From an uncultured Pseudomonadota bacterium (GTDB lineage: Bacteria; Oederibacteriota; Muellerivitia; Muellerivitales; Muellerivitaceae), in NCBI GenBank assembly GCA_963836235.1, contig CAWIIP010000002.1, positions 1,184,001-1,248,000 on the forward strand: 64,000 bases of DNA, in the 5' to 3' direction. The position numbers were made by a program, and so were the translations under genes. Below, in pieces: positions 1,362 through 46,483 of the stretch (positions are counted from its first letter, which is position 1; every line of letters starts with the position of its first letter). The notes beneath the pieces are model-generated. The model had not been told where the DNA came from and searched no databases. It saw nothing but the letters and a program-made list of their open reading frames with translations.

Positions 1362-1615
1362 CGGAACGCAGAAGAACAGGCGAACGGCGGAATCATTTAA
1401 TGACCGATCAAGAAATGGCCGAGCTGGTTTCTGTTTCCGTTAATACGGTCCGCTATTGGCGGCAAACCGGCATCCTTCCCTTCGTCCGGGTGGGCAAATA
1501 CCCCAGGATTTGGTACTCGGAATTTGAGAGGCTTTTCAAAAAACCCCTGTCCCATTGGGTATTGACGGCTGATACAATATCCAGTGCTGAGGGCAACATT
1601 AGGAGGCAGTTATGA
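1358..1615 (+). CDS. Excisionase-like MerR/HTH_17 DNA-binding protein
   Basis: MTDQEMAELVSVSVNTVRYWRQTGILPFVRVG; overlaps the integrase start. Confidence 0.8.
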   Translation: MTERRRTGERRNHLMTDQEMAELVSVSVNTVRYWRQTGILPFVRVGKYPRIWYSEFERLFKKPLSHWVLTADTISSAEGNIRRQL

Positions 1616-3075: not shown

Positions 3076-3169
<94 letters not shown>

Positions 3170-7479: not shown

Positions 7480-7752
7480 CTAAAGATTGCGAAGAATTCT
7501 TTCCAGTTCTTTTCGGTCCAAGACACGCAAAACAACCACTCCCTTTTCAGTGGGTTCGAAGAGGGACCGGTAATTCCCGGTTCTTAAGCGGTAAAGATTC
7601 TTATAACCTTCCAGTTTTTTTAACTTGGGTGGGCCGGGCCAAGGGCGGGTTTGCGGGATTTTCAGGTCGTCCAAAATTTCCCCGGCGGCGGCTTTTTCAA
7701 GGGCTTTCAAATCCCTCAAAGCACGGGGTGAAAGCTCAACCAGGAGGGGCAA
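7480..7752 (-). CDS. RelE-family toxin
   Basis: SPRALRDLKAL...KKLEGYKNLYRLRTGNYR; TTG start directly after the antitoxin stop. Confidence 0.85.
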   Translation of the reverse strand: MPLLVELSPRALRDLKALEKAAAGEILDDLKIPQTRPWPGPPKLKKLEGYKNLYRLRTGNYRSLFEPTEKGVVVLRVLDRKELERILRNL

Positions 7753-7753
7753 A

Positions 7754-8008
7754 TCAGAGTCCCAGCCGCTTGCGGGCGTCCGAAAGGGAAACCCCGCCTT
7801 TCTTGCCATATTCCTTCCTCGACTCCTCGATTTGGGCCATGAACTCTGGCTGCTTATAAACCAAATCCTCTATTTCGTCCTCGGTCAGGTGCAGCAGGAC
7901 GGCCTGGGGCTTTCCATGGTTCGTAATGACGTATTTTTCCCCTTTTTCCACGTCCTTCATCACCGAAGGGGTTTTCAAGCGCAAGTCGCGCATATTCACG
8001 AATTTCAA
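7754..8008 (-). CDS. Phd/YefM antitoxin
   Basis: VNMRDLR...VITNHGKPQAVL. Confidence 0.88.
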   Translation of the reverse strand: MKFVNMRDLRLKTPSVMKDVEKGEKYVITNHGKPQAVLLHLTEDEIEDLVYKQPEFMAQIEESRKEYGKKGGVSLSDARKRLGL

Positions 8009-8092: not shown

Positions 8093-8120
8093 TGTCCAAC
8101 CCGGGTCCCCGTCGTGGACA
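8093..8120. repeat. 28-bp cassette site (distal)
   Basis: TGTCCAACCCGGG-TC-CCCGTCGTGGACA. Confidence 0.9.
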
Positions 8121-8123
8121 ACT

Positions 8124-9107
8124 TCACCCGCCGCCTTTTCGATCATACCCACATTTCCCACAAAATTTTTGGTTGTGTTGAATGGGATGCCCGCACGTGA
8201 GACACCGCATGGTTTTTAACCAATAAAAGACTAAGTAATAGAAAAGGGCAAAAAACAAAACCCCGGTCAAAATTCCAAACAATGGGTTTATGAAAAGCAT
8301 CATAAAAAGATTGAAAAAGATAACCGAAATATAAGAGGTCGTATTTAATGAATAAAAACCACCATGGAATTGTTTGATGAAGGCGGGAAGATCCATATAA
8401 CTATTCGGGGGAACAAGAGGCTGAACAGGGTATCTAATTGTGGGAAAGGACTTGTCCTCAAATTTGAGTACCTCCGGGGTGGGGGTAGGTAACAATTCCG
8501 ATGTTCCCAATTCATTTGATTCCGACGCCCGCAACAAGAAGCTAATGTTTTTATAACAAAATGGGAGACCGTCAAAAGAATTACTCCGTTCCACAACCTG
8601 ATGAACAAGTTTCATATCCAGTTTTATATTTTTTCCACCCACGGCAAGAGTGAGCGGTTTTTGAATTGGGGTTGGCACGACGGTCGGGCAGAAAAAATAA
8701 TCGTTTTTAAAATCCTTAGGGAATTGTTTCGTATGCGGTTCTGTCTTGGGGAGGATTTCGATATTGATCCCGTCAAAATTCATTCCTAAAGCAGGGCCAG
8801 CAGTGCATATTCTTAACAAGAACAACGAACCATCCTTTTTTTGGAGCCATGCGCCATAGGTGTTCTGGAGCCCGTCCTTCGTTTTGCCCAGTTGAAATTT
8901 CAGATCGCATGGAAGTTTATAGGTCGTTTGCGGGTTGGTGACGCTCTCGAATGTTTGGACAAGCAAAGGCTGGTCCGATCGGCCATGGCCCTGAATCGCG
9001 AAAATGCCACAAAGAATGATGATCAGACTCATTACGAAATAATGACGAGGCAACAGATAACGCAGCTTCATCGATACCCACTTCCTATTCAGAAACGAAA
9101 GTGCCAA
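8124..9107 (-). CDS. Hypothetical membrane protein with C-terminal double CxxC zinc ribbon (cassette)
   Basis: N-terminal TM/signal, C-terminal TMs, CLTCG...FCGKCG. Confidence 0.7.
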   Translation of the reverse strand: MALSFLNRKWVSMKLRYLLPRHYFVMSLIIILCGIFAIQGHGRSDQPLLVQTFESVTNPQTTYKLPCDLKFQLGKTKDGLQNTYGAWLQKKDGSLFLLRICTAGPALGMNFDGINIEILPKTEPHTKQFPKDFKNDYFFCPTVVPTPIQKPLTLAVGGKNIKLDMKLVHQVVERSNSFDGLPFCYKNISFLLRASESNELGTSELLPTPTPEVLKFEDKSFPTIRYPVQPLVPPNSYMDLPAFIKQFHGGFYSLNTTSYISVIFFNLFMMLFINPLFGILTGVLFFALFYYLVFYWLKTMRCLTCGHPIQHNQKFCGKCGYDRKGGG

Positions 9108-9139
9108 CTTTATTATCCTGCTGTTTACCAGATTTTACC

Positions 9140-9167
9140 TGTCCACTCCGGGTCCCCGTCGTGGACA
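9140..9167. repeat. 28-bp cassette site
   Basis: TGTCCACTCCGGG-TC-CCCGTCGTGGACA. Confidence 0.9.
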
Positions 9168-9176
9168 ACCTTGGTG

Positions 9177-9842
9177 TCATAAGCTCCAAAATTCGTAACC
9201 AAGAGAAAATAACCCATCTAGATGTTGGCCAAAACCATTGATGGATCTCCCATCATTACTTTTAAGGGTATTGTTATAAATATAACCCTCCCCTAGTTCG
9301 AGTCTTGCGTCCAAAACAAAATTACCGAGTTCAAATGAAGCGCCAAAGTCGAACCCCCAATCCAATGGGTTGTAGGAAGGAGTGGTTGACGCTGGAAAAC
9401 CGGCGGGGACCGAAGGGCTATAGAGCCCCTGTAAAAGCAAACCGGTATAGGGCCCAAACAAAAGGTTTGCTTTAAAATCCTGGATGGTCAGAACCTTTCC
9501 TTTCAGGAGGAGCGGTATTTCCAAATAGGGGAAAGGGTAACGATAACTTGGATAGTTAGGATTACTGTAGACATCTTCATCCCCTTTTAAGACATATAAA
9601 AGCTCAGGTTGGAATGATAGGAAGTCATAGATTTTTATGTCGGAAAACAACCCCACATTGAACCCATAATAACCCGCACCCCCAAAGTAAAAAGTTCCTG
9701 TTCCTCCTACAGCTGGATAAATTTGGCAATTAGTAACACCCGCCTTAACCCCCAACGTGACTGGATCGGCCCAGGAATACATGGATGAAAAAAATTGGAG
9801 GAAAAGAAAACAACTAGTAATAAATAAGCTTGGCTTCATCAT
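9177..9842 (-). CDS. Outer-membrane beta-barrel, porin-family (cassette)
   Basis: Signal peptide, GVKAG, FQPELLY..KG, YLEIPLLLK, terminal SLGYEF. Confidence 0.8.
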   Translation of the reverse strand: MMKPSLFITSCFLFLQFFSSMYSWADPVTLGVKAGVTNCQIYPAVGGTGTFYFGGAGYYGFNVGLFSDIKIYDFLSFQPELLYVLKGDEDVYSNPNYPSYRYPFPYLEIPLLLKGKVLTIQDFKANLLFGPYTGLLLQGLYSPSVPAGFPASTTPSYNPLDWGFDFGASFELGNFVLDARLELGEGYIYNNTLKSNDGRSINGFGQHLDGLFSLGYEFWSL

Positions 9843-9902
9843 GCCTCCCTATTCTGGACAACTTATCTTGCCTTTATTTTAGCTCTTTGACGGCAAAAGG
9901 GT

Positions 9903-9930
9903 TGTCCACGACGGGTCCCCGTCGTGGACA
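9903..9930. repeat. 28-bp cassette site (perfect)
   Basis: TGTCCACGACGGG-TC-CCCGTCGTGGACA. Confidence 0.95.
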
Positions 9931-9932
9931 AG

Positions 9933-10796
9933 TTAAACAACGGCCTTGATTCGTTTCCAATCCTCTTCAATAAAACCAACCACACTGTCATCCTGATTCG
10001 ATCCGATGATCTGATGGGCATGTTTCTTTAATTCCGGCTCGGCGTTGCTCACGGCGATGCTTCGATCCGCTATCTTGAACATCTTGATATCGTTCATGTG
10101 GTCCCCAAAAACCACCAATTCCCTGTCCTGAAGTCCCATTCGCTCCTGAAGAGTGCGGATCGCCTGGTCCTTGGTTGCCCGGTGGTCGTGGATGGTCAGC
10201 CAGTGCCAACCACGACAATAGATGTCCTCAACAAAATGGGTTTCCACCCCTGACCCATGACTTTTTTGGATGGTTTTTTCCAAAGGTTGTAAGGTTTCCT
10301 CTTTCCCAATGACCGTCAGGCAAACCACATCTTGGGATTTGATGGCTTCGAAATTCCTTACCTGGAGAAGCCGATGGTCGTTATTTTTCCTACGGTCGTT
10401 CAAATAAAATTCCATCCCATCATTCTTGATCTCGCTGTAATAAAGCCGGTCATTTTCGCCGTCGAACGCGGATACGAAAGGCAGGTGTCGATGATCCAAA
10501 ATGGTTTTGAGGAGGTCTTTCACGATCTCAGGTTGGATACAGTTGATGAGCTGATGGTCACCGGTTTGGTAATCAGAAATAAAAGCGCCGTTGAATTCGA
10601 TGACCGGCAAAGCAAGGGAAAGCCCCCTTAAAACCTGGCGGATGGAAACGATGCTCCGGGCACTGGCAACGGTGAACAGAAGTCCTTCCTTCAATAAAAA
10701 CTCTAAAGTGCGCAAGGAAACATCGGACAATTTCCCATTATTGGCAAGAAGGGTTCCATCCAAGTCCGATATATATAATGGTTTCGTCGAAGTCAT
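9933..10796 (-). CDS. Cof-type HAD-IIB hydrolase (cassette)
   Basis: SDLDGTLL, ASAR, FGDHMNDIKMF. Confidence 0.9.
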   Translation of the reverse strand: MTSTKPLYISDLDGTLLANNGKLSDVSLRTLEFLLKEGLLFTVASARSIVSIRQVLRGLSLALPVIEFNGAFISDYQTGDHQLINCIQPEIVKDLLKTILDHRHLPFVSAFDGENDRLYYSEIKNDGMEFYLNDRRKNNDHRLLQVRNFEAIKSQDVVCLTVIGKEETLQPLEKTIQKSHGSGVETHFVEDIYCRGWHWLTIHDHRATKDQAIRTLQERMGLQDRELVVFGDHMNDIKMFKIADRSIAVSNAEPELKKHAHQIIGSNQDDSVVGFIEEDWKRIKAVV

Positions 10797-10842
10797 GTCC
10801 TATTATTCTTCATCGGTTTCTTTCGCGCCAAGGATTTTCCCT

Positions 10843-10870
10843 TGTCCAATCTGTGTCCCCGTCGTGGACA
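10843..10870. repeat. 28-bp cassette site
   Basis: TGTCCAATCTGTG-TC-CCCGTCGTGGACA. Confidence 0.85.
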
Positions 10871-10875
10871 ACCAC

Positions 10876-11307
10876 TTAACCAATCTTCTTATATAAAAAG
10901 TACCGTTCGCTTCCCTTTGGGAAGTGTTTTAAGGAACCAAATCTTTTAAAACCTAATTTTCGATAAAATCCCGGAGCTTGGAAATCGAAAGTGTCCAAAT
11001 GGACATACTTGCAGCCCCTCTTTTTTGCAACTGCCTCAGCCTTATTAAGGAGTTGAGTTCCAATGTCCTTGTTCCTGTGTTTTTCATCCACCCATAACAT
11101 TTTTACAAAAAGCCAGCCCCAATAGGTGCCGCTGACCAAACCGGCGATCAATTTCCCCTTGGAGTCGATGGCCTCAAAATCCAAGTCCTTCCAATTGAAA
11201 CGGCCAATCTTTTTCGCGTTATAAGCATTGAGTTCTTGGACAACCCTATTTCGGAATTTTTTATTCGATGACGATACGGGTTTGATTGAAGCTGAAGTTC
11301 TTGTCAT
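10876..11307 (-). CDS. GNAT acetyltransferase (cassette)
   Basis: LWVDEKHRNKDIGTQLL, LDTFDFQAPGFYRKLGF. Confidence 0.9.
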   Translation of the reverse strand: MTRTSASIKPVSSSNKKFRNRVVQELNAYNAKKIGRFNWKDLDFEAIDSKGKLIAGLVSGTYWGWLFVKMLWVDEKHRNKDIGTQLLNKAEAVAKKRGCKYVHLDTFDFQAPGFYRKLGFKRFGSLKHFPKGSERYFLYKKIG

Positions 11308-11351
11308 GCCGCCCCTTTACGCCTTAATAAATAATCATCGCCTGAAAAGGT

Positions 11352-11379
11352 TGTCCACGACGGGTCCCCGTAGTGGACA
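11352..11379. repeat. 28-bp cassette site
   Basis: TGTCCACGACGGG-TC-CCCGTAGTGGACA. Confidence 0.92.
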
Positions 11380-11410
11380 GATTTTTTATATCAAAAGGGC
11401 GAATTGGAAT

Positions 11411-12544
11411 TTATTGGATTTCCCGGATCAGGTTGTTGTCCTGGTCCGCGATGTAGATTTTCCCGGAGGAATCCACCGCGATTCCATCAGGCTGGTTGAA
11501 AAGGGCCTGGTAGCAATTTCCGTTGGTTGAACCCGCGACCCCCACTTTTCCCAACAGGGTCGTCACCACGCCCCCTGGGGTAATTTCACGGATCAGGTTG
11601 TTCCACGCGTCCGTCACGTAAACATTTCCGGAGGAATCCACCGCGACCCCAAGGGGCATATTGAAAGACGCCGCGGTCCCGATTCCGTCGGCCGAGCCGG
11701 CTGACCCGGACCCCGCCAGGGTCGTCACCACGCCTCCCGGAGTGATTTTCCGGATCATGTCGTTGTAAGAATCCGCGACATAAACATTCCCCGAAGAATC
11801 GACCGCGAGTCCAACGGGATTATAAAAAGACGCGGCGGTTCCGGTTCCGTTGGTGGCCCCCCAGGCACCCGATCCCGCCAGGGTCGTCACGACGCCGCCC
11901 GGGGTAATTTTCCGGATGAGGTCGTTGGTTTGATCCGCCACATAAACGTTTCCGGAAGCATCGACGGCTATTCCCCAAGGTCCGTTGAACGAAGCGGCGG
12001 TTCCCGTTGCGTTTACCGCGCAACAAGGCCCGCCTCCGGCCAAGGTGGTCACCACCCCACCGGGGGTTATCATCCGGATCAGGTTGTTAATGGTATCCGC
12101 GACATAAACATTGCCCGAAGAATCCACCGCCAGGGCGTAGGGAGTATGAAAGGACGCGGCGGTCCCGGTGGCGTTGACGGCTCCAATCGCCCCGGACCCG
12201 GCCAAGGTCGTTACTACCCCACCTGACGTGATTTCCCGTATCAGGTTGTTGTAAGTATCCGCCACATAAACATTCCCGGAAGAATCCACGGCGGCCCCCG
12301 TAGGGAAATTGAACGACGCGGCTGTACCAGTGGCGTTGACGGCTCCAACCAACCCGGACCCCGCCAAGGTCGAAACGATTTTCCCGCTACAGGTGGGGGT
12401 AGGCGAACCTGTGGCGGTAAAGGTTTTGGTGGGAGGTGGAGCGGGAGTTGGAACGCTCAGAGGGCCTAACGTATAGGTCTTCTGGCAAGCCAGGGGGAAC
12501 AGGCCGATCAAGAGGATTACCGCGATAAGGAAAAGTCGATTCAT
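11411..12544 (-). CDS. NHL-repeat lipoprotein (cassette)
   Basis: Lipobox LAC, six repeats of FN.P.G.AVDSSGNVYVAD..N..IR.IT. Confidence 0.9.
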   Translation of the reverse strand: MNRLFLIAVILLIGLFPLACQKTYTLGPLSVPTPAPPPTKTFTATGSPTPTCSGKIVSTLAGSGLVGAVNATGTAASFNFPTGAAVDSSGNVYVADTYNNLIREITSGGVVTTLAGSGAIGAVNATGTAASFHTPYALAVDSSGNVYVADTINNLIRMITPGGVVTTLAGGGPCCAVNATGTAASFNGPWGIAVDASGNVYVADQTNDLIRKITPGGVVTTLAGSGAWGATNGTGTAASFYNPVGLAVDSSGNVYVADSYNDMIRKITPGGVVTTLAGSGSAGSADGIGTAASFNMPLGVAVDSSGNVYVTDAWNNLIREITPGGVVTTLLGKVGVAGSTNGNCYQALFNQPDGIAVDSSGKIYIADQDNNLIREIQ

Positions 12545-12596
12545 ACTTGCCTCAATTATAGAAGCGTAACGAAGATTGGATTATACCCCTTTTACC

Positions 12597-12624
12597 TGTC
12601 CACGATGGGTCCCCGTCGTGGACA
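12597..12624. repeat. 28-bp cassette site
   Basis: TGTCCACGATGGG-TC-CCCGTCGTGGACA. Confidence 0.92.
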
Positions 12625-12638
12625 AGTGTTTTCGTTGA

Positions 12639-12923
12639 TTAATGAGCGGCCAGATGGTGGCGTTTCTTTTTAGCTAGATAGTGCTGGTCCAATCCTTGGC
12701 GAAGGATCGATTTGATAACTGCTTGGCGGCTTACATTCATTTCGCGGACCAACCCATCCAATTCCTTAAGCATGTTTTCCGCGAAATCCACATTGACCCG
12801 GCGGATGGCCGGCATCATTTTTCCGTGGTTCGTAAAATGTTTCGAGATGTTCTCCCCTTTGTCAGCCATTTGAGCTAATTGTTCAGCCGTTGGAACTGTT
12901 TTTGCCTTATGAATGGTTTTCAT
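12639..12923 (-). CDS. CopG/RHH antitoxin (BrnA-type partner)
   Basis: RRVNVDF...LD....MNVSRQAVIK; overlaps the upstream toxin. Confidence 0.8.
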   Translation of the reverse strand: MKTIHKAKTVPTAEQLAQMADKGENISKHFTNHGKMMPAIRRVNVDFAENMLKELDGLVREMNVSRQAVIKSILRQGLDQHYLAKKKRHHLAAH

Positions 12924-13185
12924 ATAATTTCCTTTCTTCCTTAGTGGATTTCCAAAGAGTGACTAAGTGAATGTACTCGCCATCCCGATCCGTTCTCTCT
13001 TCATAGATCACGGTATAGAGCCTTTCCCCAACCCAACCAATAGCCCGCCATTGCTCCGGTAAATCCGAACGCTGGTCAAGGTAGTAAGGGCTTTCCCAAA
13101 GCATTTGGGCTTCCTCGAAACCAATGCCACGTGCCCGGTTCCGACGAAGGCTATTGCTCTTGTTCCTGTCGAACTTAAACCGCAT
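12907..13185 (-). CDS. brnT: BrnT-family toxin
   Basis: FKFDRNKS...RGIGFEEAQ...ERKLYE; operator-like palindrome GTATAAC-T-GTTATAC at 13197-13211. Confidence 0.85.
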   Translation of the reverse strand: MRFKFDRNKSNSLRRNRARGIGFEEAQMLWESPYYLDQRSDLPEQWRAIGWVGERLYTVIYEERTDRDGEYIHLVTLWKSTKEERKLYENHS

Positions 13186-13257
13186 CTACGCTCCATGTAT
13201 AACTGTTATACCATCTATTCCTGATTACCTCAAGAAAGCATCCGGCACGAATTTAGG

Positions 13258-13285
13258 TGTCCACGACGGGTCCCCGTCGTGGACA
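13258..13285. repeat. 28-bp cassette site (perfect)
   Basis: Exact consensus. Confidence 0.95.
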
Positions 13286-13302
13286 GCCTTTGAATGGGTT
13301 CC

Positions 13303-15021
13303 TCATTCAAAACCATAGAATGAATAAGGAACTGATTTTGAATCTTTCACCGTGCTGTTGACATAAACTTTACCGGAATCGCTGTCGTAGAGCCAACCTA
13401 TGTTACTACCAGTGGGGACTTCCCCCTTTTTGGCCATAGTGACATAATTTCCTTCCGGGCTTTTGGCACTTGCGACAAAAGCGCTAGTGACCTGGACCAT
13501 GGGAATAACTTGGGTTCCGGATGTATCCCTGCTTTCCATCACAGCCTGTTCCAGTTTTTCGGATGAGGCCGGCCAGCGATGGTGTTTTTGATGGTATGAA
13601 TGAACCCCTATATAAATCCGCAACAAATCACAACGAGTACAAGTTTCGTTCGTTTTTTCGACCATCTGGGCAAAGCGTGGCCTAGAGAACGAACTCATCA
13701 ACCATGTTTTTCTCCAGTCATCATCACGGACATGTTCAGCGGCGGCGGGACCCATTTTGAGAGCTTTCATATATTGGACACCATAATCATATTGGGAACC
13801 CTGGTCGAATAGCAAAAAGGGCCAATAAATGATTCCAAAGAATTTGCTAATAGCATTGCCTTCGAGGGTTACATATCCCCACCAACCTAATTGGCAAAAA
13901 TCCGTCAAATAAAATTTAAACAAGTCGTTTTGCATCGCTGTAAAAAATTCAGTTCTGATCCTACTCGGCTCAATGAAAGGAAAAAGCTCCATCCCTCCTT
14001 TCCCTTTTACCTCTAAAAGCGGCAAAACTCGCTCGGCTGGAGCCACCATCATTCCCGCAACGGCCACACCTATCATTTCTCCAATTAAGGTATGGGTTTG
14101 ATCCACCATATCTGCCAATAGGAACCCCTCCTCAAGGCTGCGGACCGCACCTTGGGCATTTCCGTCCATGGCTTGCACGGTCGCCCGAAAACGGATCAAA
14201 CGCGCAAGAGACAAAAGATGTGTCATCCGTGGAATAGCGATTTGCCAAGAGGGTTTATGATTCCAGTCAATTCCCCAATCTACTCCCTTGTATTCCGTAG
14301 TGGCGTCGATCAACCGGAAAGCATCTTCATGTTCTTTCAACAACTTTCGGGCATAGGCCTTGTCCTCGGCTGTCACGAGACCCTGGGAAACCCGGTGGGT
14401 GAAATAAATCGCGAATTCATCTTCAGCCATCTTTCCAAAAAAGGGCTGGTTGGTCAGGTTGGGCTGATTTTTATGATTCCCATATTTCCGTGTGTTTTCG
14501 GAAAACCTGCCATTGGGTGCGGGGTCATCATAAATTGCCGATAGCCCTCCGAATTTACGCATGGAAGGCGAGTTCCAGGCCTCGTTGATGAGGACAACGG
14601 CGTTTTGATCGTCCGGCAGCACGGGTGCATTTGACGAGGGTTCAAGGCTGTACCCGCCTTCTATGACGTCTTTTTGTGCGATGTTCAGGGAGATTTGCCC
14701 CATATACCGCCAAAAAAAACCGCCAGCTACATAACCCAGGATCATGAATAATAAAAACGGAAGGATGGAGCTAGCGAGTGCCCGAAACCCATTTTTCTTT
14801 TTGCGGTATTTCGGGAACGATTTTCTCCACAACCAAAAAAGGAAAGGGACTGATGCCGCCAATAACAGAAGAGTGATTGCCCAAAACCAAAAGGACTTGG
14901 TATCGGACCAAGGGGTTAAGCCCGACCAAGGCATGATTTTGCCAAGCCAGAAACCCGGCAAAGTTACCAACAATAAACCAGCTACCACTGGGGGCCAGAC
15001 GGTTTTCCAAAGAGATTTCAA
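13303..15021 (-). CDS. Hypothetical membrane protein (cassette)
   Basis: 572 aa with 3 N-terminal TM helices and a helical body. Confidence 0.75.
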   Translation of the reverse strand: MKSLWKTVWPPVVAGLLLVTLPGFWLGKIMPWSGLTPWSDTKSFWFWAITLLLLAASVPFLFWLWRKSFPKYRKKKNGFRALASSILPFLLFMILGYVAGGFFWRYMGQISLNIAQKDVIEGGYSLEPSSNAPVLPDDQNAVVLINEAWNSPSMRKFGGLSAIYDDPAPNGRFSENTRKYGNHKNQPNLTNQPFFGKMAEDEFAIYFTHRVSQGLVTAEDKAYARKLLKEHEDAFRLIDATTEYKGVDWGIDWNHKPSWQIAIPRMTHLLSLARLIRFRATVQAMDGNAQGAVRSLEEGFLLADMVDQTHTLIGEMIGVAVAGMMVAPAERVLPLLEVKGKGGMELFPFIEPSRIRTEFFTAMQNDLFKFYLTDFCQLGWWGYVTLEGNAISKFFGIIYWPFLLFDQGSQYDYGVQYMKALKMGPAAAEHVRDDDWRKTWLMSSFSRPRFAQMVEKTNETCTRCDLLRIYIGVHSYHQKHHRWPASSEKLEQAVMESRDTSGTQVIPMVQVTSAFVASAKSPEGNYVTMAKKGEVPTGSNIGWLYDSDSGKVYVNSTVKDSKSVPYSFYGFE

Positions 15022-15186
15022 ATTAATATTCCCTTCTCCATTACATGCAAAAGAAAATTGTTAGAAATCCCAAAACACCTCGTTGGCCCATAATAAAGCC
15101 GCCTCGATTGGCCGGACCGGAACCGGTTTATCTCATCTTGGTCCGTTGAGATATGCTCCTGAAAACAGGGGCCATCCATTTTTCCT

Positions 15187-15214
15187 TGTCCACGACGGGT
15201 CCCCGTGGTGGACA
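15187..15214. repeat. 28-bp cassette site
   Basis: TGTCCACGACGGG-TC-CCCGTGGTGGACA. Confidence 0.92.
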
Positions 15215-15226
15215 ACCAAAACCTAT

Positions 15227-15811
15227 TTATTTGCGATCAACCCATTTTTCCACAGATGTTGGAATATAAGCTTCCATTTCCTTAAGAAGTTGTTCCGGCT
15301 CTTGGGCCACCAATATCATTTGACGGTGTTCCTCCCTCAAAAAACGCTGGTCAACGGCGTGGTCCAAAAAATCCATCAAACGGTCGAAATAACCACGGAC
15401 GTTTAAAAAACCAACCGGTTTCGAATGGATGCCCAACTGCGCCCAGGTCAAAACTTCTGTCACTTCTTCCAATGTTCCCAGACCCCCGGGCATGGCAACG
15501 AACCCGTCCGACAATTGGAACATCTTGGTCTTTCTTTCGTGCATTGTTGGAACAACGTGAAGTTCCCCCAGGCCCTTATGGCCAACCTTTTGATTGAGTT
15601 CTTCGGTAATGACCCCAATCACTTCCCCCCCATGGCTCAAAACCGAGTTGGCGATCTCCCTCATTAGACCCACATTCGCCCCCCCATAGATAAGCGAACT
15701 ACCCCTCTGCGCCAGCCTCTTTCCCAACTCGCGGGATGCATCGACATACTCGGGGTGAGCCCCTGGGCTGGAGGCACAATTGACGCAAATTCTTTTTAGT
15801 TTTCCAGACAT
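15227..15811 (-). CDS. LOG-family (TIGR00730) nucleotide phosphoribohydrolase (cassette)
   Basis: LIYGGANVGLM, MHERK, MPGGLGTLEE. Confidence 0.92.
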   Translation of the reverse strand: MSGKLKRICVNCASSPGAHPEYVDASRELGKRLAQRGSSLIYGGANVGLMREIANSVLSHGGEVIGVITEELNQKVGHKGLGELHVVPTMHERKTKMFQLSDGFVAMPGGLGTLEEVTEVLTWAQLGIHSKPVGFLNVRGYFDRLMDFLDHAVDQRFLREEHRQMILVAQEPEQLLKEMEAYIPTSVEKWVDRK

Positions 15812-15850
15812 TTAAACCACCTTTATAAAAAACCATCACTTAAATTTACC

Positions 15851-15878
15851 TATCCAAGAAGGATCCCCGTCGTGGACA
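15851..15878. repeat. 28-bp cassette site (degenerate left arm)
   Basis: TATCCAAGAAGGA-TC-CCCGTCGTGGACA. Confidence 0.85.
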
Positions 15879-15888
15879 ACCAAAATAT

Positions 15889-16572
15889 TTAAGCGGGGAG
15901 CAATCCTGGCAATTCCATCAAACTCTGTATAACGGGAACTTCTAAACCCGATTCCACACCCCTGCTTTTGCGGTCCAGCCAAATACCTTTCATCCCGGCT
16001 TTTTGACTGCTCCTAGCATCTGTTTCTAATCGATCTCCTACGTAAACACAATCTGTCAATGGAACTCCCGCTTGTTTCGCGGCCAATTCAAAGATGGCTT
16101 GTTCGGGTTTGGCGCAACCCACCTCACCGCTGATGATGACGGTCGAAAAATATGGTTCCAAGTCTGTCTTTCGGATTTTGGACCGGTGTTGTTCCTTTTC
16201 ACCGTTGGTGATTAGCCCTAGGGAGCGTCCTTTCAGGGACCGCAAGCATGGAAGGGAGTCGGTGAAGAGTTCCCACCGAGATTCATAGGTATCCAGGTAC
16301 ACCTGAAAACGGGCATCTGCCTCGATCTCGGAAAGAGGATGGGAAAAGATTTCCCTCACCCTACCCCTGCGGCGTTCCTCTGTAGTCAACCTCAGGAAAG
16401 GAGAATTTGACTGGAAATATTTTTCCGAAACGGTTTCCCAACGCAAAAGAAAATCTTCCAAGTCTTCCTTAAAAGAAGACCGGTAAGTTTCATAGACCTT
16501 TGTGGCCCCGGCTTTGGCTGCGGCGCTGTGGTCCAAAAGAGTATCATCGAGGTCAAAAAATACCATGGTCAT
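15889..16572 (-). CDS. HAD-IA hydrolase (cassette)
   Basis: FFDLDDTL, ITNG, KP, VGDRLETD. Confidence 0.9.
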   Translation of the reverse strand: MTMVFFDLDDTLLDHSAAAKAGATKVYETYRSSFKEDLEDFLLRWETVSEKYFQSNSPFLRLTTEERRRGRVREIFSHPLSEIEADARFQVYLDTYESRWELFTDSLPCLRSLKGRSLGLITNGEKEQHRSKIRKTDLEPYFSTVIISGEVGCAKPEQAIFELAAKQAGVPLTDCVYVGDRLETDARSSQKAGMKGIWLDRKSRGVESGLEVPVIQSLMELPGLLPA

Positions 16573-16584
16573 CCTTTTATCCCT

Positions 16585-16612
16585 TGTCCACGACGGGTCC
16601 CCGTCGTGGACA
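16585..16612. repeat. 28-bp cassette site (perfect)
   Basis: Exact consensus. Confidence 0.95.
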
Positions 16613-16696
16613 AGGTCTGACTAACCTTTTTATTCTGTGTAGTATTTCGTGTCCAAACAAAACTTGGGATAGGAAAGATCGATTTTCGAAACACTT

Positions 16697-17095
16697 TTAA
16701 ACATGGGGAAACACCTTTCTTATCCATGCCTGCAAAACCAAAGCGTTGGTACAAGCGCATAAAACAATAATCAAAAACCAAGTAAAATATTTCCATTTAA
16801 ATTTGGAAGTGTATAAAAGAAACATTCTTATCAGCAACACATAAACGACGATGAAGCCATATAGTGGCACCGCGCTCCCTTCCAAGCTCCAATTAATTGA
16901 TAGCGCTTTATAAACAATCCGAAGAAGAATAAAGGGCGCGCTAACGAAATAGTATTGAACATTGGCGCTAATAATTTCGAGCCAGAAATAATTTGAATTG
17001 TTCAGGATTTTTACTTCTTTTGTTGCCCACAGAACAAAAGACACACCCGCAACTAAAACCATTTCACTGAGTAGTTTAGATTTATTAATATTCAT
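16697..17095 (-). CDS. Hypothetical multi-TM membrane protein (cassette; start at 17095 or 17143)
   Basis: Hydrophobic AT-rich ORF; the longer called ORF reads through the repeat site. Confidence 0.6.
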   Translation of the reverse strand: MNINKSKLLSEMVLVAGVSFVLWATKEVKILNNSNYFWLEIISANVQYYFVSAPFILLRIVYKALSINWSLEGSAVPLYGFIVVYVLLIRMFLLYTSKFKWKYFTWFLIIVLCACTNALVLQAWIRKVFPHV

Positions 17096-17156
17096 GTTTA
17101 TTAATGGTTTCCCGAGTTGGTCTCGAACTGGCCCGGCATTCATTCTCAATTTCACC

Positions 17157-17184
17157 TGTCCACGATGGGTCCCCGTCGTGGACA
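17157..17184. repeat. 28-bp cassette site
   Basis: TGTCCACGATGGG-TC-CCCGTCGTGGACA. Confidence 0.92.
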
Positions 17185-17237
17185 ACCTTTTCACTAATTT
17201 TTAACCCCACCACAAGAATCACTTTTGAGTTTTCTAT

Positions 17238-18137
17238 CTATTCTTTATTCCAATCCCTCAGAAGAGAATCCACTTCATATTTCAAATGCCTGTTTTTTGT
17301 GCTTTTTGAAAAATCTTCCAATGATTTTTTAACATTGTCATTTTTCATCTTCGTTAAAATCAAAAGCGCTTTATCTCGCAGATCATCTTTTTGGGATTCA
17401 TCTCGCAAAACTTTTATAATCGGCGAAAGTATCAGCTTTTGAACATCCATCGAAGCGCCCGATTGTTCTAAAAGCTCCATTGCCTCTGCCGCTTTAATTG
17501 AAACTTCCGGTGTCATATTCAAAGCTTTAATGAGGATCGGCTTGGCTTTTTCGTCCACATAGTTTCGATCTTTTAAAAAGTCATATTCATAAAGCGAATT
17601 TATTTCGTACCATTCATTATTTTCCAACCACCTTTGGTAATAAGGGGTCACAGTTTTTAAATCATCCAAACGATACAAAATATACACGGCATTTTTATCT
17701 TTATTGTTTCCAGTCAAAAACTCCTTCATTTTTTCAATAATAATTTTTTTATCATTCTTTTGAAATACCGGATCATTTTTCAAAGATGAGACTAACGCAC
17801 CCAGGACATAGAACGGGGAAAGGGATTTTAAATCGGTGGGATTATTTATTAAATCCAACACAGGCCCGATGGCCCGTCGGTCCCGCGAATTTGAAATCTG
17901 TTTTAAGGCTGCCTGTTTTTCCTCTAAATTCCCATTCTTAAGTTTTTCCAATAACTCGGATAAATGAGCCTGTATTGTTTGGGCTTCGGCCCGGGTTAAT
18001 TCTTCGGTCTTAACTCGACTTAACCGTTTTTCATCTTCATTACCAACGCTCTGTTTCTCGGTTTGGCCAAAACCGGGCGGAACACTTAAAAAGGTTAGCG
18101 TTATTAAAAATAATGCATTCCTCATAATTGATTTCAT
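17238..18137 (-). CDS. Secreted HEAT-repeat-like protein (cassette)
   Basis: Signal peptide, helical repeats (D.RAIGPVL; LRDKALLIL). Confidence 0.65.
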   Translation of the reverse strand: MKSIMRNALFLITLTFLSVPPGFGQTEKQSVGNEDEKRLSRVKTEELTRAEAQTIQAHLSELLEKLKNGNLEEKQAALKQISNSRDRRAIGPVLDLINNPTDLKSLSPFYVLGALVSSLKNDPVFQKNDKKIIIEKMKEFLTGNNKDKNAVYILYRLDDLKTVTPYYQRWLENNEWYEINSLYEYDFLKDRNYVDEKAKPILIKALNMTPEVSIKAAEAMELLEQSGASMDVQKLILSPIIKVLRDESQKDDLRDKALLILTKMKNDNVKKSLEDFSKSTKNRHLKYEVDSLLRDWNKE

Positions 18138-18169
18138 ATAACACCTTTCAATTTTTATGGCTTTTCACC

Positions 18170-18197
18170 TGTCCAATGCGGGTCCCCGTAGTGGACA
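18170..18197. repeat. 28-bp cassette site
   Basis: TGTCCAATGCGGG-TC-CCCGTAGTGGACA. Confidence 0.88.
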
Positions 18198-18233
18198 GCG
18201 TTTCATCTTCCTAAACGTCAATTATTTCCTTTT

Positions 18234-18626
18234 TCATTTCTTCTTTTTAAATTCCCCTACTTTAAATATTGCTTGGGCGCAAACTGCGATAACACAATTT
18301 ATTGCAACCATTGCGATCAACAACAAGACGTCCGAATCCCCCGTTAGGGCTGGAATAATGCCAAGGTAATACAGATACAACCGTAGTCCGATCATAAACA
18401 AAGCGGAGAGCAACCAAATAAGGGTGAATTTAGAAATAAATTTTCCCTTATCATCCCTAACAAATATGAAAACCAAAAAAACCATAAGAATAAAATAAAC
18501 AATAGTGCCACCGACAAGATGATGCAATTCCTCGGATAATCCCAAGGGATCCAAAATCAAATCCGACGCCCACCAGCCGCCGGCACCGATGAATATTGCG
18601 ATTAATGTTTCTATCCAGGTTGCCAC
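18234..18626 (-). CDS. Hypothetical 4-TM membrane protein (cassette)
   Basis: Four hydrophobic segments; fills the interval between sites. Confidence 0.7.
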   Translation of the reverse strand: MATWIETLIAIFIGAGGWWASDLILDPLGLSEELHHLVGGTIVYFILMVFLVFIFVRDDKGKFISKFTLIWLLSALFMIGLRLYLYYLGIIPALTGDSDVLLLIAMVAINCVIAVCAQAIFKVGEFKKKK

Positions 18627-18652
18627 TTATTCACACCCCTAGTGCTTTTCCC

Positions 18653-18680
18653 TGTCCACGATGGGTCCCCGCCGTGGACA
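18653..18680. repeat. 28-bp cassette site (proximal)
   Basis: TGTCCACGATGGG-TC-CCCGCCGTGGACA. Confidence 0.9.
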
Positions 18681-18831
18681 TGTTCCAATCCATGAACCAT
18701 TCTCCATCCATCCTTAGACCCGCGCCACAAGGATAAGCCCTCTAAAACCCAAGCAGGCCCTTCACCTTATCGGTGGCCGATTTGGCCTGGTCGGCCGTGT
18801 TGACCGCGCTTTGATAATTTTTCACTCCGGC
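18681..18831 (-). repeat. Diverged copy of the ParB-like gene 3' end plus trailer (21570-21718)
   Basis: Encodes ...GVKNYQSAVNTADQAKSATDKVKGLLGF* versus GVKGYQSAVNTADQAKSATDRVKSLLGF*. Confidence 0.9.
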
Positions 18832-19198
18832 TCCCCGCCGGGAACAGGCTAAGACCGGAACTGAAGGTAAAAGTTCGGGTCAAGGGGAAAAACCGGGGAG
18901 TGGGATGGGGAATTCCAAGGCAGATAAGGCAAATAGTAAAATTAATTTGACGAAATCAGCCGGTTTTTTTCAGGCCTAATTTATGTTCGATTTTTCGGAC
19001 GCGCTCTTCGAGAGTTGCATTATCAGACATGGAACGCTTTAAAATGGAGTTCATGAGAGTTTGGTAAGGGATTCCCTGTCTTTTGCCTTCCTCGATAAGC
19101 CAATGGTAAACCGACTCATCCAACCGGAAGGTTTTCTGGATCTTGGAACCTTTGGAAGCTAAGAGAGGGCCCTTATGGACCTTCGCTTTAGAAAAATC

Positions 19199-20685
19199 GT
19201 AACTGTTCAGGCCCCTTGCAGAGCAAAAGGAGATATGGCAACATCGTAGAGGATGAACGACACCCCTTCAATACCAACCAACTGTCCGAATTGTGAGCGT
19301 TTGCAGGCTAGGGTGGAAACTCTGGAATCCGAAGTCCAAGAGTTAAAAGCCTTGGTACGGGAGTTGACGGCCCGCTTACAGCAAAACTCTTCCAATTCGT
19401 CCAAACCACCCTCTTGCGATAGTCCTTTTCAAAAATCCCAACAATCGAAGCCCAAGAGTGACCGAAAACCAGGTGGCCAACCGGGACACATGGGATGCAC
19501 CCGAAAGCCGTTTCCCAAGGAAATGGTGACAGATGTACAGATTCACTTGCCCCTGAAATGCGGGGAATGCGGCCATGAACTGGCCAAACGGGCTGGGAAG
19601 AGAGACCCCGAACCTCAAGTGCATCAAGTGGTGGAAATCCCACCGTTCAAGCCGGAGGTGATCGAACACCAAGTCCAGGGCCGGTGTTGTTCTTCCTGCG
19701 GGAAGGTAACCTGGGGAATGCTGCCGGAGGACGTTCGGGGAAGTTTCGGACCTCGGTTAACGGGGTTGATCGCCTTCTTCAGTGGCCGGTGCCAAATGAG
19801 TAAACGGGTGGTTCAGGAGGTTTTGGAAGGGTTGTTAGGAGTGCGGATGGCCCTGGGAAGCTTGAGCGCCAAGGAACGAGAAGTCAGTGAAGCCCTGAGA
19901 GAATCCTGGGTGGAAGCAAAAGAAGCGGTACGGCAGTCGGCGGTGAAGAATGCGGATGAGACGGGATGGTACCTGAGCGGGAAATTGAAATGGCTCTGGG
20001 TTGGCACAACGCCGCGGGTGGCGGTTTTTGAGGTTCAGGAGCACCGGAACCAGGAAGCGATGAAGGAATTGCTGGGTGAGAAGGCGAAAGGGATAGTTGG
20101 GAGCGACCGGTTCGGAGCCTACACACCGATCCCCTTGGAGCAAAGGCAGTTGTGCTGGGCCCATTTCAAGAGGGACTTACAGGGATTGATCGAGTCGGGG
20201 GAAGAGAAAGGCCAAAGGATCGGGAAAGGCTGTCTTCGGACACTGAAGGCGGTGTTTGAGGCGTGGGGGAAATACGAGGATGAGAAGGTGGGCCGAAAGG
20301 GCTTGCGACGAAGACTAGAACCACTAAAGACACGATTAGCCCGATGGTTAAAGCGGGGCCGGGAAGGTCCGGCGGACAGTACCAGCCGCCTTTGTGGGCG
20401 GGTTCTAAAACTCTATGAAGCTTACTGGACCTTCATGAGGGTGGAAGGGGTTGAACCGACGAACAACCTGGCGGAGCGGGACCTTCGGACGGCTGTTTTA
20501 TGGCGCAAGCGCAGCTATGGAAATCGGAGCCGGGAAGGGTGCCGGTTCACGGAACGCGTACTGACGGCAGTACAGACGCTTCGAAAGCAAAAGCGGAATG
20601 TGTTGGATTATCTGGCTGAGGCGGTGCTGGCCCACCGGGCAGGAAGATTGGCGCCCTCGTTAGTGTCCTTGGCCTGAACAGATAC
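19199..20685 (+). mobile_element. IS66-family element (single-ORF, ISBst12-like)
   Basis: TIRs GTAACTGTTCAGGCC / GGCCTGAACAGATAC; 8-bp TSD GAAAAATC at 19191-19198 and 20686-20693. Confidence 0.93.
19253..20677 (+). CDS. IS66 transposase
   Basis: NSSNSSKPPS, KPGGQPGH, zinc finger, ADETGW, QLCWAH, PTNNLAERDLR. Confidence 0.95.
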   Translation: MNDTPSIPTNCPNCERLQARVETLESEVQELKALVRELTARLQQNSSNSSKPPSCDSPFQKSQQSKPKSDRKPGGQPGHMGCTRKPFPKEMVTDVQIHLPLKCGECGHELAKRAGKRDPEPQVHQVVEIPPFKPEVIEHQVQGRCCSSCGKVTWGMLPEDVRGSFGPRLTGLIAFFSGRCQMSKRVVQEVLEGLLGVRMALGSLSAKEREVSEALRESWVEAKEAVRQSAVKNADETGWYLSGKLKWLWVGTTPRVAVFEVQEHRNQEAMKELLGEKAKGIVGSDRFGAYTPIPLEQRQLCWAHFKRDLQGLIESGEEKGQRIGKGCLRTLKAVFEAWGKYEDEKVGRKGLRRRLEPLKTRLARWLKRGREGPADSTSRLCGRVLKLYEAYWTFMRVEGVEPTNNLAERDLRTAVLWRKRSYGNRSREGCRFTERVLTAVQTLRKQKRNVLDYLAEAVLAHRAGRLAPSLVSLA

Positions 20686-20743
20686 GAAAAATCATATTCT
20701 TTTTTCATAGTTTTCCCGTTCCTTTCGCGTGGCTTTTCTGGCC

Positions 20744-21043
20744 TTAGCGTATTTCCGAAATCAATTCTGGATGGGATTTAAGAATGCGGATCAGTTTTGA
20801 CGCGGAACCACTGGGCCGTCGAATGCCCTGTTCCCAATGTTCAACGGCATTAGCACTTGCGCCCACAACTCCCGCAAACCCGGCTTGGGTCAAATGCAAA
20901 GCTTTACGAACGCCTTTCACTTCATCAGCGGTAGCCGGTTTTGGCCGGTAGCTTTCCCGCATCCCGTGAAGTTTCTTGCCTTTTTTGATCTCGATGGATT
21001 GCTTGAGGCTCTTCCGCATCAGCTTGAAGTCTTTATCGTTCAT
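20744..21043 (-). CDS. HigA-like XRE HTH antitoxin
   Basis: RKALHLTQAGFA..VGAS.NAVEHWEQGIRRPSG. Confidence 0.85.
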   Translation of the reverse strand: MNDKDFKLMRKSLKQSIEIKKGKKLHGMRESYRPKPATADEVKGVRKALHLTQAGFAGVVGASANAVEHWEQGIRRPSGSASKLIRILKSHPELISEIR

Positions 21044-21540: not shown

Positions 21541-21568
21541 TGTCCACGACGGAGCCCCGACGCAGACA
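21541..21568. repeat. Degenerate 28-bp site downstream of the ParB-like gene
   Basis: TGTCCACGACGGA-GC-CCCGACGCAGACA. Confidence 0.8.
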
Positions 21569-23299: not shown

Positions 23300-23603
23300 A
23301 GAGTTCTCCCTTAAATAATTTAAATTGCGGTCATTGCGAGGCCCCTGTGCTGAACCCACCGGGTGAAGCACATGCCTTGGGTGTGCTGATGCCCAAACAG
23401 GCATCAGCTCTAGGCCATGCGAATAGCAGGGCGTTTACGCCGCGGCAACCTCGGGTTAGAACGGCATATGGGAGAAAACTACCGAATTCTTTTTTGGATT
23501 TCCAGCGTTCTTTTGAAAAAAGGGGTTTGGGGGGAGGGAAAAGGGCCGGAAGTGGACAGTCTTTGGGCAGGTTTTAACCTAGTTTTAGGACTTAAATTAC
23601 AAA

Positions 23604-24419: not shown

Positions 24420-24789
24420 CTACCTGAAATTCGTCCTCATAAACAATATACCCAACTCTTTTTTCCCGAATCATTCGAACTGTTATTCCATGATTCTTTA
24501 AAAGCTCGGCCAATTCTCTCATTTTCGAAATGTGCTCTTTAGCACTGTCTTTGAACCAACTAAGTGCTTTTTCCTTGGCATTTGGATTTCTAGAACGAGT
24601 GAATTTGGTAGGTGTTTTTAAGTTTTTTCCAAACCATTGGGTCAGAGCAGTAAATTGTCCTTGTTCTATATAACTTAATTTTTGATCGTCACTCAATTTA
24701 TAACCGGTAGCAAACAATCCTTGAAGACGATTAGAGTCTTCCACCTTTTCATTAACGACAAATCTCAAGTACATATAACCAACCTTCAT
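24388..24789 (-). CDS. Conserved hypothetical protein
   Basis: YLRFVV...WF..NL..P...SWFK...GYIVYEDEFQVVA.P. Confidence 0.7.
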   Translation of the reverse strand: MKVGYMYLRFVVNEKVEDSNRLQGLFATGYKLSDDQKLSYIEQGQFTALTQWFGKNLKTPTKFTRSRNPNAKEKALSWFKDSAKEHISKMRELAELLKNHGITVRMIREKRVGYIVYEDEFQVVAMPFDDTKA

Positions 24790-46437: not shown

Positions 46438-46483
46438 AAAGCCCCCTCAAGGTAAAAAGCGGGACTATTATAATTCAGCGGGG

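Follow-up and report, generated by a model that had tools for sequence, protein, structure and literature searches.

A 28-bp palindromic site, probably a recombination core site, bounds one-way gene-cassette arrays in one order of FCPU426

Integrons are the textbook device for stockpiling and exchanging single genes; their attC sites are imperfect hairpins of 57-141 bp with extrahelical bases, exchange takes place at the G|TT edge of the R' box, and the whole attC travels with the gene. The pdif modules of Acinetobacter, whose neighbouring sites alternate in orientation, are to our knowledge the only other well-described cassette system. Passages in three reports describe them as small accessory modules with 28-bp core sites, served by an enzyme that the host supplies (PMC6449649, PMC13141974, PMC7399989). 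The present work deals with an array of gene cassettes separated by a 28-bp palindromic site in the genome of an uncultured bacterium (G000, 3.97 Mb in five contigs). The window, that is the whole stretch of DNA analysed, comprises the 64,000 nucleotides C2:1184001-1248000 of this genome. On the evidence of one-way arrays, co-oriented and unrelated cargo, family-wide presence, identical cassettes in different arrays and genera, central exchange and hybrid array ends, the 28-bp sequence is probably the core site of a conservative site-specific recombination which moves single genes or toxin-antitoxin (TA) pairs as cassettes. The mode of working is closest to that of the Acinetobacter pdif modules, and the appearance is closest to that of a sedentary chromosomal integron. 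The initial annotation, made from the letters of the window, had proposed an integron-like gene capture with a recombinase possibly acting in trans; this proposal is supported, whereas its analogy to attC had to be corrected, the exchange being central, as in sites of the dif/lox type, and not at the edge.

The 28-bp site and its arrays

Between positions 8093 and 18680 of the window, 13 sites of the same orientation separate 12 minus-strand units. The 28-mer TGTCCACGACGGG-TC-CCCGTCGTGGACA was matched 10 times with at most three mismatches, always on the plus strand; the expected number is 0 and none of 100 shuffled sequences reached 10. Three copies with a diverged left arm (10843, 15851 and 18170) were recovered via the right-arm 13-mer and repeat family D2, which brings the total to the 13 one-orientation copies first annotated. 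A looser scan of the window revealed two degenerate copies, and the array was extended to 21568. The intervals between sites measure 455-1901 bp and contain a single minus-strand open reading frame (ORF) or a BrnT/CopG pair, as confirmed by the ORF list and Pfam, and the distance from stop codon to site, recomputed from the ORF coordinates, is 2-84 nt as had been stated. The cargo was also correctly described as unrelated: Pfam identified a GNAT acetyltransferase, two HADs, a LOG-type Lysine_decarbox protein, BrnT with RHH, NHL repeats and an outer-membrane beta-barrel, and four units gave no Pfam family or a weak match only. The G+C fraction (GC) of the units varies between 0.36 and 0.571, the contigs having 0.50-0.52, in agreement with the reported shift of composition between units.

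The sites of the window are listed below; they were found by the 28-mer scan and in repeat family D2 unless another source is given.

8093-8120, +, site 1, outermost (distal) full site, three left-arm mismatches
9140-9167, +, site 2; the metagenome contig joint 9148->16594 falls inside it
9903-9930, +, site 3, perfect consensus
10843-10870, +, site 4, diverged left arm, 23/28 (right-arm 13-mer, D2)
11352-11379, +, site 5, one end of the NHL cassette duplicated at 100% identity
12597-12624, +, site 6, opposite end of the duplicated NHL cassette
13258-13285, +, site 7, perfect; start point of contigs with other neighbours
15187-15214, +, site 8; the contig joint 15198->18681 begins inside it
15851-15878, +, site 9, diverged left arm, 24/28 (right-arm 13-mer, D2)
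16585-16612, +, site 10, perfect; contig joint
17157-17184, +, site 11
18170-18197, +, site 12, left-arm variant AATGC (right-arm 13-mer, D2)
18653-18680, +, site 13
18819-18846, +, degenerate site, 20/28 (loose scan, D2)
21541-21568, +, degenerate site, 23/28, decayed outer right arm, the last toward the presumed promoter side (loose scan)

The cassette genes come from the ORF list together with Pfam, except that the NHL gene and the BrnT/RHH pair come from Pfam.

8124-9107, -, 327 aa, C-terminal zinc ribbon (under the Pfam cut-off)
9177-9842, -, 221 aa, outer-membrane beta-barrel
9933-10796, -, 287 aa, HAD hydrolase (Hydrolase_3)
10876-11307, -, 143 aa, GNAT acetyltransferase
11411-12544, -, 377 aa, NHL repeats
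12639-13185, -, two-gene cassette: BrnT toxin 12907-13185 and RHH/CopG antitoxin 12639-12923
13303-15021, -, 572 aa, no family
15227-15811, -, 194 aa, LOG / Lysine_decarbox
15889-16572, -, 227 aa, HAD hydrolase
16697-17194, -, ORF of at most 165 aa, no family; as its listed GTG start runs into site 11, translation probably begins further inside
17238-18137, -, 299 aa, weak HEAT match only, GC 0.36
18234-18626, -, 130 aa, no family

The scan of the genome and its relatives that had been proposed at the outset gave 67 sites in G000 (at most six mismatches), 61 of them in 12 arrays of 2-14 sites and six solitary, and the orientation is uniform in each of the 12 arrays. Copies scattered in the manner of repetitive extragenic palindromic (REP) elements, named beforehand as the distribution that would speak against gene capture, were thus not what was found. 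The polarity of the longest ORF relative to the site is the same as in the window in 45 of 49 G000 intervals, and one of the four exceptions is an IS66 transposase. With a centre-fixed pattern the site was present in 28 of the 32 genomes of the order, at 0-80 copies, and a reversed-pattern control gave 0 throughout. Copy numbers contrast strongly within genera (80 in G018, 9, 7, and 0 in G024 in one genus; 71 in G045, 37, 9, and 7 in G020 in another) and the 28-mer is unchanged across 16 genera. When the sample was widened, the site was detected in 18 of 24 genomes of the family (f1) and in the single genome of the sister family (f2), again with a control of 0, and in none of the 15 genomes that represented eight other families of the phylum. 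In public databases the site is found in metagenome-assembled genomes, most of them under the title "candidate division FCPU426 bacterium" (at least 103 stretches), and metagenome collections carry it on at least 120 stretches. No match was obtained among viral contigs or phage records, and plasmid records gave one partial match at chance level. A literature search which covered main texts and not supplementary files found neither of the two 13-mer half-site strings and no description of such a system, and the FCPU426 literature consists, among the matches listed, of community surveys only.

For general statistics, 241 loci from relatives, genome contigs and metagenome contigs were pooled, some of them overlapping stretches of the same genomes. 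They contain 683 sites, whose orientation is uniform in 176 of the 179 multi-site loci and mixed in three, and 484 intervals, which represent 438 distinct cassettes with a median length of 772 bp. The longest ORF is sense in 417 cassettes and antisense in 19, two having none; the median gap from stop codon to site is 18 nt, and in 247 of the 417 the first start codon has a loose Shine-Dalgarno pattern ahead of it. As a separate observation, cumulative GC skew of G000 places the genes of those arrays with a clear local skew (C4, C5, the start of C2, and C1) on the leading strand.

Conservation around the sites is limited to about 7 nt on each side of the 28 bp, and on the gene strand an AGG-AAA stretch after the site resembles the ribosome-binding site of the next gene. 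The two arms are unequally kept: at left-arm positions 7-10 the consensus base is present in 60-76% of sites, against 87-96% at the mirror positions 19-22, the latter figures being inflated by collection scans which demanded exact positions 1-6 and 11-28 in one site per locus. Left-arm variants include AATCC, AATGC and ACTCC. The same asymmetry is present in the unbiased G000 list, and Xer sites on plasmids likewise have one well-kept and one loose arm. Folded as RNA, the consensus forms a perfect 12-bp stem of -22.4 kcal/mol, while the recurrent left-arm variants form a symmetric 3x3 internal loop without bulged bases (-10.5 to -17.1 kcal/mol); about 40% of sites have an internal bubble between outer and inner stem when folded. 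An ordinary intrinsic terminator was ruled out as the nature of the site, strong as the RNA hairpin nonetheless is, because only 1 of the 13 window sites was flagged as such and that one on the antisense strand. Promoter-like matches in the window numbered 20 against 16.5 expected.

The arrays have much in common with integrons: they run one way, consist mostly of single promoterless-looking genes each followed by a site, carry diverse and TA-rich cargo, have clade-homogeneous sites parasitised by IS110/IS1111-type elements and group II introns, and share cassettes between several taxa. Nevertheless, the system fails every molecular integron criterion that could be tested. The absence of a visible IntI, already reported for the window, extends to the genome, in which the best TIGR02249 score is 40.9 bits against a cut-off of 265, and this cut-off was exceeded in 0 of 41 genomes. 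R'' RYYYAAC and R' GTTRRRY boxes within 75 nt were found at 0 of 65 sites on either strand, which bears out the initial statement that the sites are not attC. Moreover, the site has 28 bp, its exchange is central, and no integrase or attI-like anchor stands at the array head. With pdif modules the arrays share short modules of one or a few accessory genes, TA pairs included, bounded by 28-bp core-type sites; a site with one arm better kept than the other; and the lack of a recombinase within or beside the modules, pdif relying on the host enzyme. A dyad of 11-6-11 (arms of 11, centre GGTCCC) fits the site as it fits pdif, though 13-2-13 and 10-8-10 fit equally well. Unlike pdif, the sites are direct repeats, with the uniform orientations given above, and the arrays are chromosomal, with up to 14 sites and co-oriented genes, where pdif modules form plasmid mosaics. 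Also unlike pdif, the host has one divergent Xer-like enzyme in place of XerC plus XerD, no dif resembling the site was found in these genomes, and the site has no likeness to the ATAA/TTAT inner arms of dif.

Movement of cassettes and the point of exchange

Cassettes bounded by the site recur in different surroundings. The segment 11350-12625 of the window (site, NHL gene, site) is found with 100% identity at C4:57528-58803, where the neighbours differ on both sides, and the BrnT/RHH unit has a 91% copy at C5:251281-251958, the distal end of the C5 array, and an 87% copy in genome G023. Between genera, G000 C2:1479156-1480011 is 99.6% identical to a cassette of G021 over the 800-bp interior and the homology stops 1 bp past both sites; by comparison, the Xer-like orthologues of these two genomes share 67% protein identity, and the core flanks of the window share only 78-86% DNA identity with the same-genus genome G001. 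Furthermore, a 975-bp cassette is 100% identical between locus L090 and the C4 contig of G000, a 1.85-kb SDR+TetR unit, present in three genera (G000, G012 and G003) at 89-92% identity, has its end precisely at the final base of the site in every one of them, and other site-bounded matches link G000 with G016 and with G023.

The same-genus genome G001 is devoid of the whole of 7468-28877, its flanks abutting at C11:202197/202205, and the array therefore lies in a 21.4-kb island, both ends of which carry ParE/Phd pairs. Conserved gene order in relatives, the other outcome named beforehand as adverse to gene capture, was accordingly not encountered: G001 has no island, and cassettes recur with other neighbours, with breakpoints inside the site. 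The island and its left edge are:

7468-28877, no strand, 21.4-kb island holding the array
7480-8008, -, ParE toxin 7480-7809 and Phd antitoxin 7754-8008 at the left edge of the island, no site after ParE (Pfam)

Contigs from three soil-metagenome DNA runs of one study (small shares of 0.17, 0.14 and 0.05) were also compared with the window. Site 9140 is joined in them to site 16585, with 7445 bp skipped and 20 letters fitting both sides, and site 15187 to sequence past site 18653; other neighbours stand at six site edges, and the ParE/Phd pair occurs directly after a site. These joints are counted as supportive only, owing to the low depth of 2-4 and to possible misjoins at repeats. As to the NHL gene itself, its segment 11417-12372 is made of six 162-bp tandem units, 66-78% identical, and metagenome contigs also show joints between these units, as expected for a repeat protein.

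To locate the exchange, cassette pairs at least 99% identical but with a differing neighbour on one side were selected, and the sites on that side were compared. When the left neighbour differs (9 pairs), 7 pairs have site differences, at positions 1, 2, 5, 7-10, 12, 13 and once 19; when the right neighbour differs (10 pairs), 3 have them, at positions 19, 20, 24 and 28. Positions 14-18 do not differ in any pair. The differences are thus confined to 1-13 on the left and 19-28 on the right, with one exception, the position-19 difference of a 99.6% pair which also carries interior substitutions, and this points to an exchange within the central TCCCC (14-18).

Hybrid sites occur at array ends. 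The site at C5:251271 keeps positions 11-28 behind an unrelated left part, whereas that at C1:370995 keeps positions 1-18, and hybrids keeping the right part outnumber those keeping the left part, in accord with the unequal conservation of the two arms. Hybrid ends usually retain GGG or CCC next to the centre, which suits an 8-bp overlap region at least as well as a central dinucleotide of the serine-recombinase kind. The array C2:164698-168036 is flanked by two decayed outer arms, mutually palindromic at 11 of 13 positions, as would result from the entry of cassettes at a look-alike sequence.

In the mechanism that we propose, a cassette read on the gene strand would consist of the variable arm, the Shine-Dalgarno-like stretch, the ORF, its stop codon, and the conserved arm with the centre. 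Recombination between two direct-repeat sites would release the interval as a putative circle with one site, this circle could re-enter at any other site, and its occasional entry at a look-alike sequence would produce the hybrid ends. The presumed enzyme would act in trans, from a gene located elsewhere than beside the arrays.

The site is also a target for other elements. IS110-family elements with a 358-aa DEDD transposase begin directly after the ...GTGGACA end of the site at four loci whose flanks differ, the transposase starting about 69 nt further on, and in either orientation of the site centre; they appear to be insertion sequences (IS) specialised on the 28-bp site. A 1.93-kb element encoding a group II intron reverse transcriptase (RT)/maturase of 436 aa splits the site between positions 10 and 11 in two places with different flanks, and related RT genes lie within arrays of other genomes.

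L097:5803-6976, IS110-family element at a site
L078:2058-3231, IS110-family element at a site
L113:5300-6472, IS110-family element at a site
L131:1893-3065, IS110-family element at a site
G000 C2:1476544-1478501 and C1:223031-224988, group II intron element, two copies 99.85% identical

These insertions mirror those described, in the relevant passages of the respective papers, for IS1111-attC elements (PMC11187229) and group IIC-attC introns (PMC3001079), both of which target the attC of integrons, and for IS elements that target pdif sites (PMC10132070). Insertion of an IS family at a fixed distance from the site is a further likeness to pdif, as far as that last paper's passages go (PMC10132070).

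The enzyme and the competing explanations

G000 encodes eight tyrosine recombinases, namely six integrase paralogues of about 367-386 aa (57-70% identical), one protein of 425 aa and one of 353 aa, together with two serine recombinases (PF00239), one large and one truncated to 278 aa which abuts an array end, and three Y1_Tnp genes. Within the family f1, the large serine recombinase is present in 8 of 24 genomes, Y1_Tnp in 17, the 425-aa tyrosine recombinase in 7 and the ParB-like family in 13. The 367-aa integrase family is present in 20 of 24; it is missing in G006, G014, G019 and G024, and G006 and G014 still hold 2-3 sites. Clustering of array-flank ORFs, in the 12 G000 arrays, then in 18 and then in 98 loci, detected no shared recombinase and no attI-like anchor at the array head; the recurrent families were NHL, ParB_N-like, IS110, group II intron RT, Sel1, PIN and ArdC.

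The integrase gene at window 1612-2715 was considered as the array enzyme and rejected, for it is syntenic in G001, which has no island. It adjoins an HTH_17 excisionase-like gene and tRNA genes at 2752-2835 and 3076-3164, and with its synteny this gives it the look of an ordinary island integrase. Its protein identity to genes in six other genera is 88-90%, against 67-77% for the Xer-like protein.

Serine-recombinase crossover sites such as res and hix have inverted half-sites around a central dinucleotide. The 28-bp site is like res site I, hix and gix in its 13-bp inverted half-sites, in the asymmetric TC which alone sets direction, and in an exchange interval (14-18) which includes the central dinucleotide. 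It is unlike them in its company, since the PF00239 search detected no small serine recombinase in G000 and the large family was found in only 8 of 24 f1 genomes. In several genomes a truncated large serine recombinase of 278-323 aa is encoded at a distance of 9-111 nt from an array end, with 78-81% identity from genus to genus (G000 C2:163827-164663; L055:7345-8316; L277:247-1092). The region 160-172 kb of contig C2 gave no C-terminal half, and the gene was either cut by cassette entry or kept as a short form.

The leading named candidate is the 353-aa Xer-like recombinase encoded at G000 C1:328834-329895 (L060:2835-3896), a protein that scores below cut-off on the XerC, XerD and XerA models and whose nearest solved structures are XerA and XerD. 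It is the only recombinase recovered in practically all genomes of the order: all but one of the 24 f1 genomes have the gene, as does f2, with identities of 56-77%, whereas other families of the phylum have pairs of XerC/D-like genes about 30% identical to it; judging from these sequences, the family appears to have replaced the XerC/XerD pair by this single divergent enzyme. The site is therefore nested within a clade having a single odd Xer. The gene lies on a contig with a broad GC-skew maximum. Palindromes near it comprise a terminator-like hairpin only, and no 11-mer is common to at least 7 of 11 Xer-like gene flanks. The Xer-like enzyme is thus, among the named proteins, the likeliest actor, with a probability that we place well under one half; otherwise, the enzyme would be of an unrecognised kind or encoded on DNA not binned into these genomes.

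Several observations weigh against a dedicated recombination system, or against the Xer-like protein as its enzyme. Neither circular cassettes nor empty sites were seen, in contigs that are of low depth and can misjoin at repeats. The arrays have no linked recombinase, for among the 2817 ORFs of the 241 loci only 11 match tyrosine or serine recombinase queries, and in the co-occurrence table suggested by the initial annotation no recombinase tracks the site across the 24 f1 genomes. The nesting of the site within the Xer-like clade is also what shared descent alone would give, and the Xer-like gene is present in the site-free G007, G017, G019 and G024 as well. The search for a chromosomal dif similar to the 28-mer was negative, with not even a match to the outer boxes in G017, G024 and G019, and neither the single sites of five site-poor genomes nor singleton sites of the same variant are syntenic. 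As regards the point of exchange, near-identical cassettes of L046 and G000 C2 share a non-consensus outer arm despite different neighbours, for which coincidence or an exchange elsewhere in the site is needed. Recombination dependent on short homology would likewise be expected to confine exchange to the stretch common to both sites.

This last point also favours an explanation that we regard as unlikely, in which the site would be an intercistronic hairpin of the REP kind that stabilises mRNA 3' ends or signals their processing, spread by a REP-associated tyrosine transposase (RAYT) or by gene conversion, and the genes between copies would be swapped through short homology or transformation. 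As in REP elements and bacterial interspersed mosaic elements (BIME), the site is a short, GC-rich, clade-specific extragenic palindrome just past stop codons; its position, the stability of its RNA fold and the three Y1_Tnp genes of G000 are all compatible with such a role. The copies are however tens and not hundreds, restricted to clustered accessory arrays and one-way in each, rather than dispersed in both directions. Y1 transposases are neither linked to the site (the flanks of 3/3 G000 genes are free of the motif) nor co-occurring with it, for the site-rich G001, G018 and G023 yielded no Y1_Tnp gene, whereas the site-free G007, G017 and G024 have one or more. The left-arm changes are not compensated in the right arm, as the unequal consensus of positions 7-10 and 19-22 indicates, and the recurrent variants open a 3x3 loop; the persistence of the same 28-mer over 16 genera also speaks against this explanation. 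Two exchanges each within at most 18 bp of identity make a poor RecA substrate. In favour of this explanation, one paper reports shuffling of cassettes via natural transformation in chromosomal integrons (PMC12614218). Targeting by IS110-family elements is a further trait in common with REP elements (compare PMC11208160, PMC11187229).

Two other explanations were weighed. That the arrays are an attC-less remnant or miniature of a true integron, comparable to a cluster of attC sites lacking an integron-integrase (CALIN), with IntI on unbinned DNA or diverged past the model, seems quite improbable. The layout and the cargo of TA pairs, small enzymes and unknowns do match sedentary chromosomal integrons, the bubble in about 40% of folded sites recalls the unpaired central spacer of attC, and the insertions of IS110-family elements and group II introns recall the attC parasites treated in parts of two papers (PMC11187229, PMC3001079). 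Against it stand the TIGR02249 result in all 41 genomes, the missing boxes, a length of 28 bp where attC has 57-141 bp, and a central exchange instead of one at the G|TT edge of the R' box. Hardly probable at all is the proposal that the site is a KorB-, Noc- or parS-like operator, at which ParB_N-like proteins silence or partition mobile islands and cassette exchange is a side effect. ParB-family proteins bind palindromes, 17 ParB_N-like ORFs adjoin arrays in the 241 loci, with the 3' end toward the array in 15 of 17 and a distance to the site of 29-91 nt in six, and the family, found in 13 of 24 f1 genomes, occurs in none of the site-free G007, G017, G019 and G024. Yet the site-rich G001 and G022 gave no member of the family, only about 7% of loci have one, the gene may just be a frequent cassette or the first gene before the array, and binding leaves the exchange points inside the site and the hybrid array ends unexplained.

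Site-specific recombination at the 28-bp core remains our preferred reading of the arrays. Whether it constitutes a third kind of cassette capture, independent of integrons and of Acinetobacter pdif, with a double-stranded core site, central exchange and a trans-acting recombinase, building chromosomal arrays, handing single genes from genus to genus, and so far confined to one order of FCPU426, is a proposal to which we give slightly less than an even chance. That same estimate covers, taken jointly, a recombinase that would be either the co-opted single Xer-like enzyme or a member of an unrecognised family, and the possession of IS110 and group II intron parasites of its own. If this were true, cassette capture would have arisen more than once, here with a different and much simpler site, with no integrase next to the arrays and in a phylum that has no cultured member, and part of the mobile gene pool would escape surveys relying on IntI and attC; IntegronFinder, as presented in part of its publication, is an integron detection tool with an attC covariance model (PMC4889954). 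The arrays also provide a catalogue of at least 438 distinct cassettes of soil bacteria, most with cargo of unknown function, and the enzyme could serve as a recombination tool. Since the site is short and exactly defined, with an exchange interval of 5 bp, identifying the enzyme is a direct bench question.

Other features of the window and of the array flanks

Beyond site 13, an IS66-family element interrupts a cassette whose intact relative is C4:140294-140596 in the C4 array; the element itself has a 99.9% copy at C5:2863-4355. The features toward the presumed promoter side are:

19197-20689, +, IS66-family element (transposase 19253-20677) inside a cassette (Pfam, repeat comparison)
20744-21043, -, MqsA-like antitoxin gene, with the IS66 element on one side and the site at 21541 on the other
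21629-23404, -, ParB_N-like protein of 591 aa; the last site lies 61 nt past the gene

Half-sites composed of GTCGAAT and the right half were considered as array ends and rejected (n=3), as they lie at the 3' ends of coding sequences (CDS) of a small paralogous protein family. In this family, which has no Pfam match, the extreme CDS 3' end holds the 18 conserved bases of the right part of the site; these occurrences may reflect a site overlapping the gene end, or chance.

Window 47169-47196, -, within ORF 47070-47504
G000 C2:427130
G000 C2:1943049

An Rfam scan of the window detected two tRNAs only, and an E-value scan of 45000-50000 gave no match. Two stretches of the window, 24001-25000 and 34001-35000, have a GC of 0.36-0.37 against a window mean of about 0.52, and the first of them is within the island.

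Among the elements in the vicinity of arrays, a 1.7-kb IS, which has terminal inverted repeats and encodes a 459-aa DDE_Tnp_1_4 transposase, was located inside or adjoining two arrays (G000 C5:253905-255614 and C1:372053-373763, copies 99.8% identical), and an 89% copy lies near an array of G022. Arrays are repeatedly accompanied by large ParB_N-like proteins that have a long low-complexity tail (besides window 21629-23404, at G000 C5:39555-41432 and C1:368632-370986, in L109, L133, L042, L046 and others). ArdC-like anti-restriction genes, too, are repeatedly seen a few kb away from arrays, a hint that conjugative or mobilisable islands house some of the arrays.

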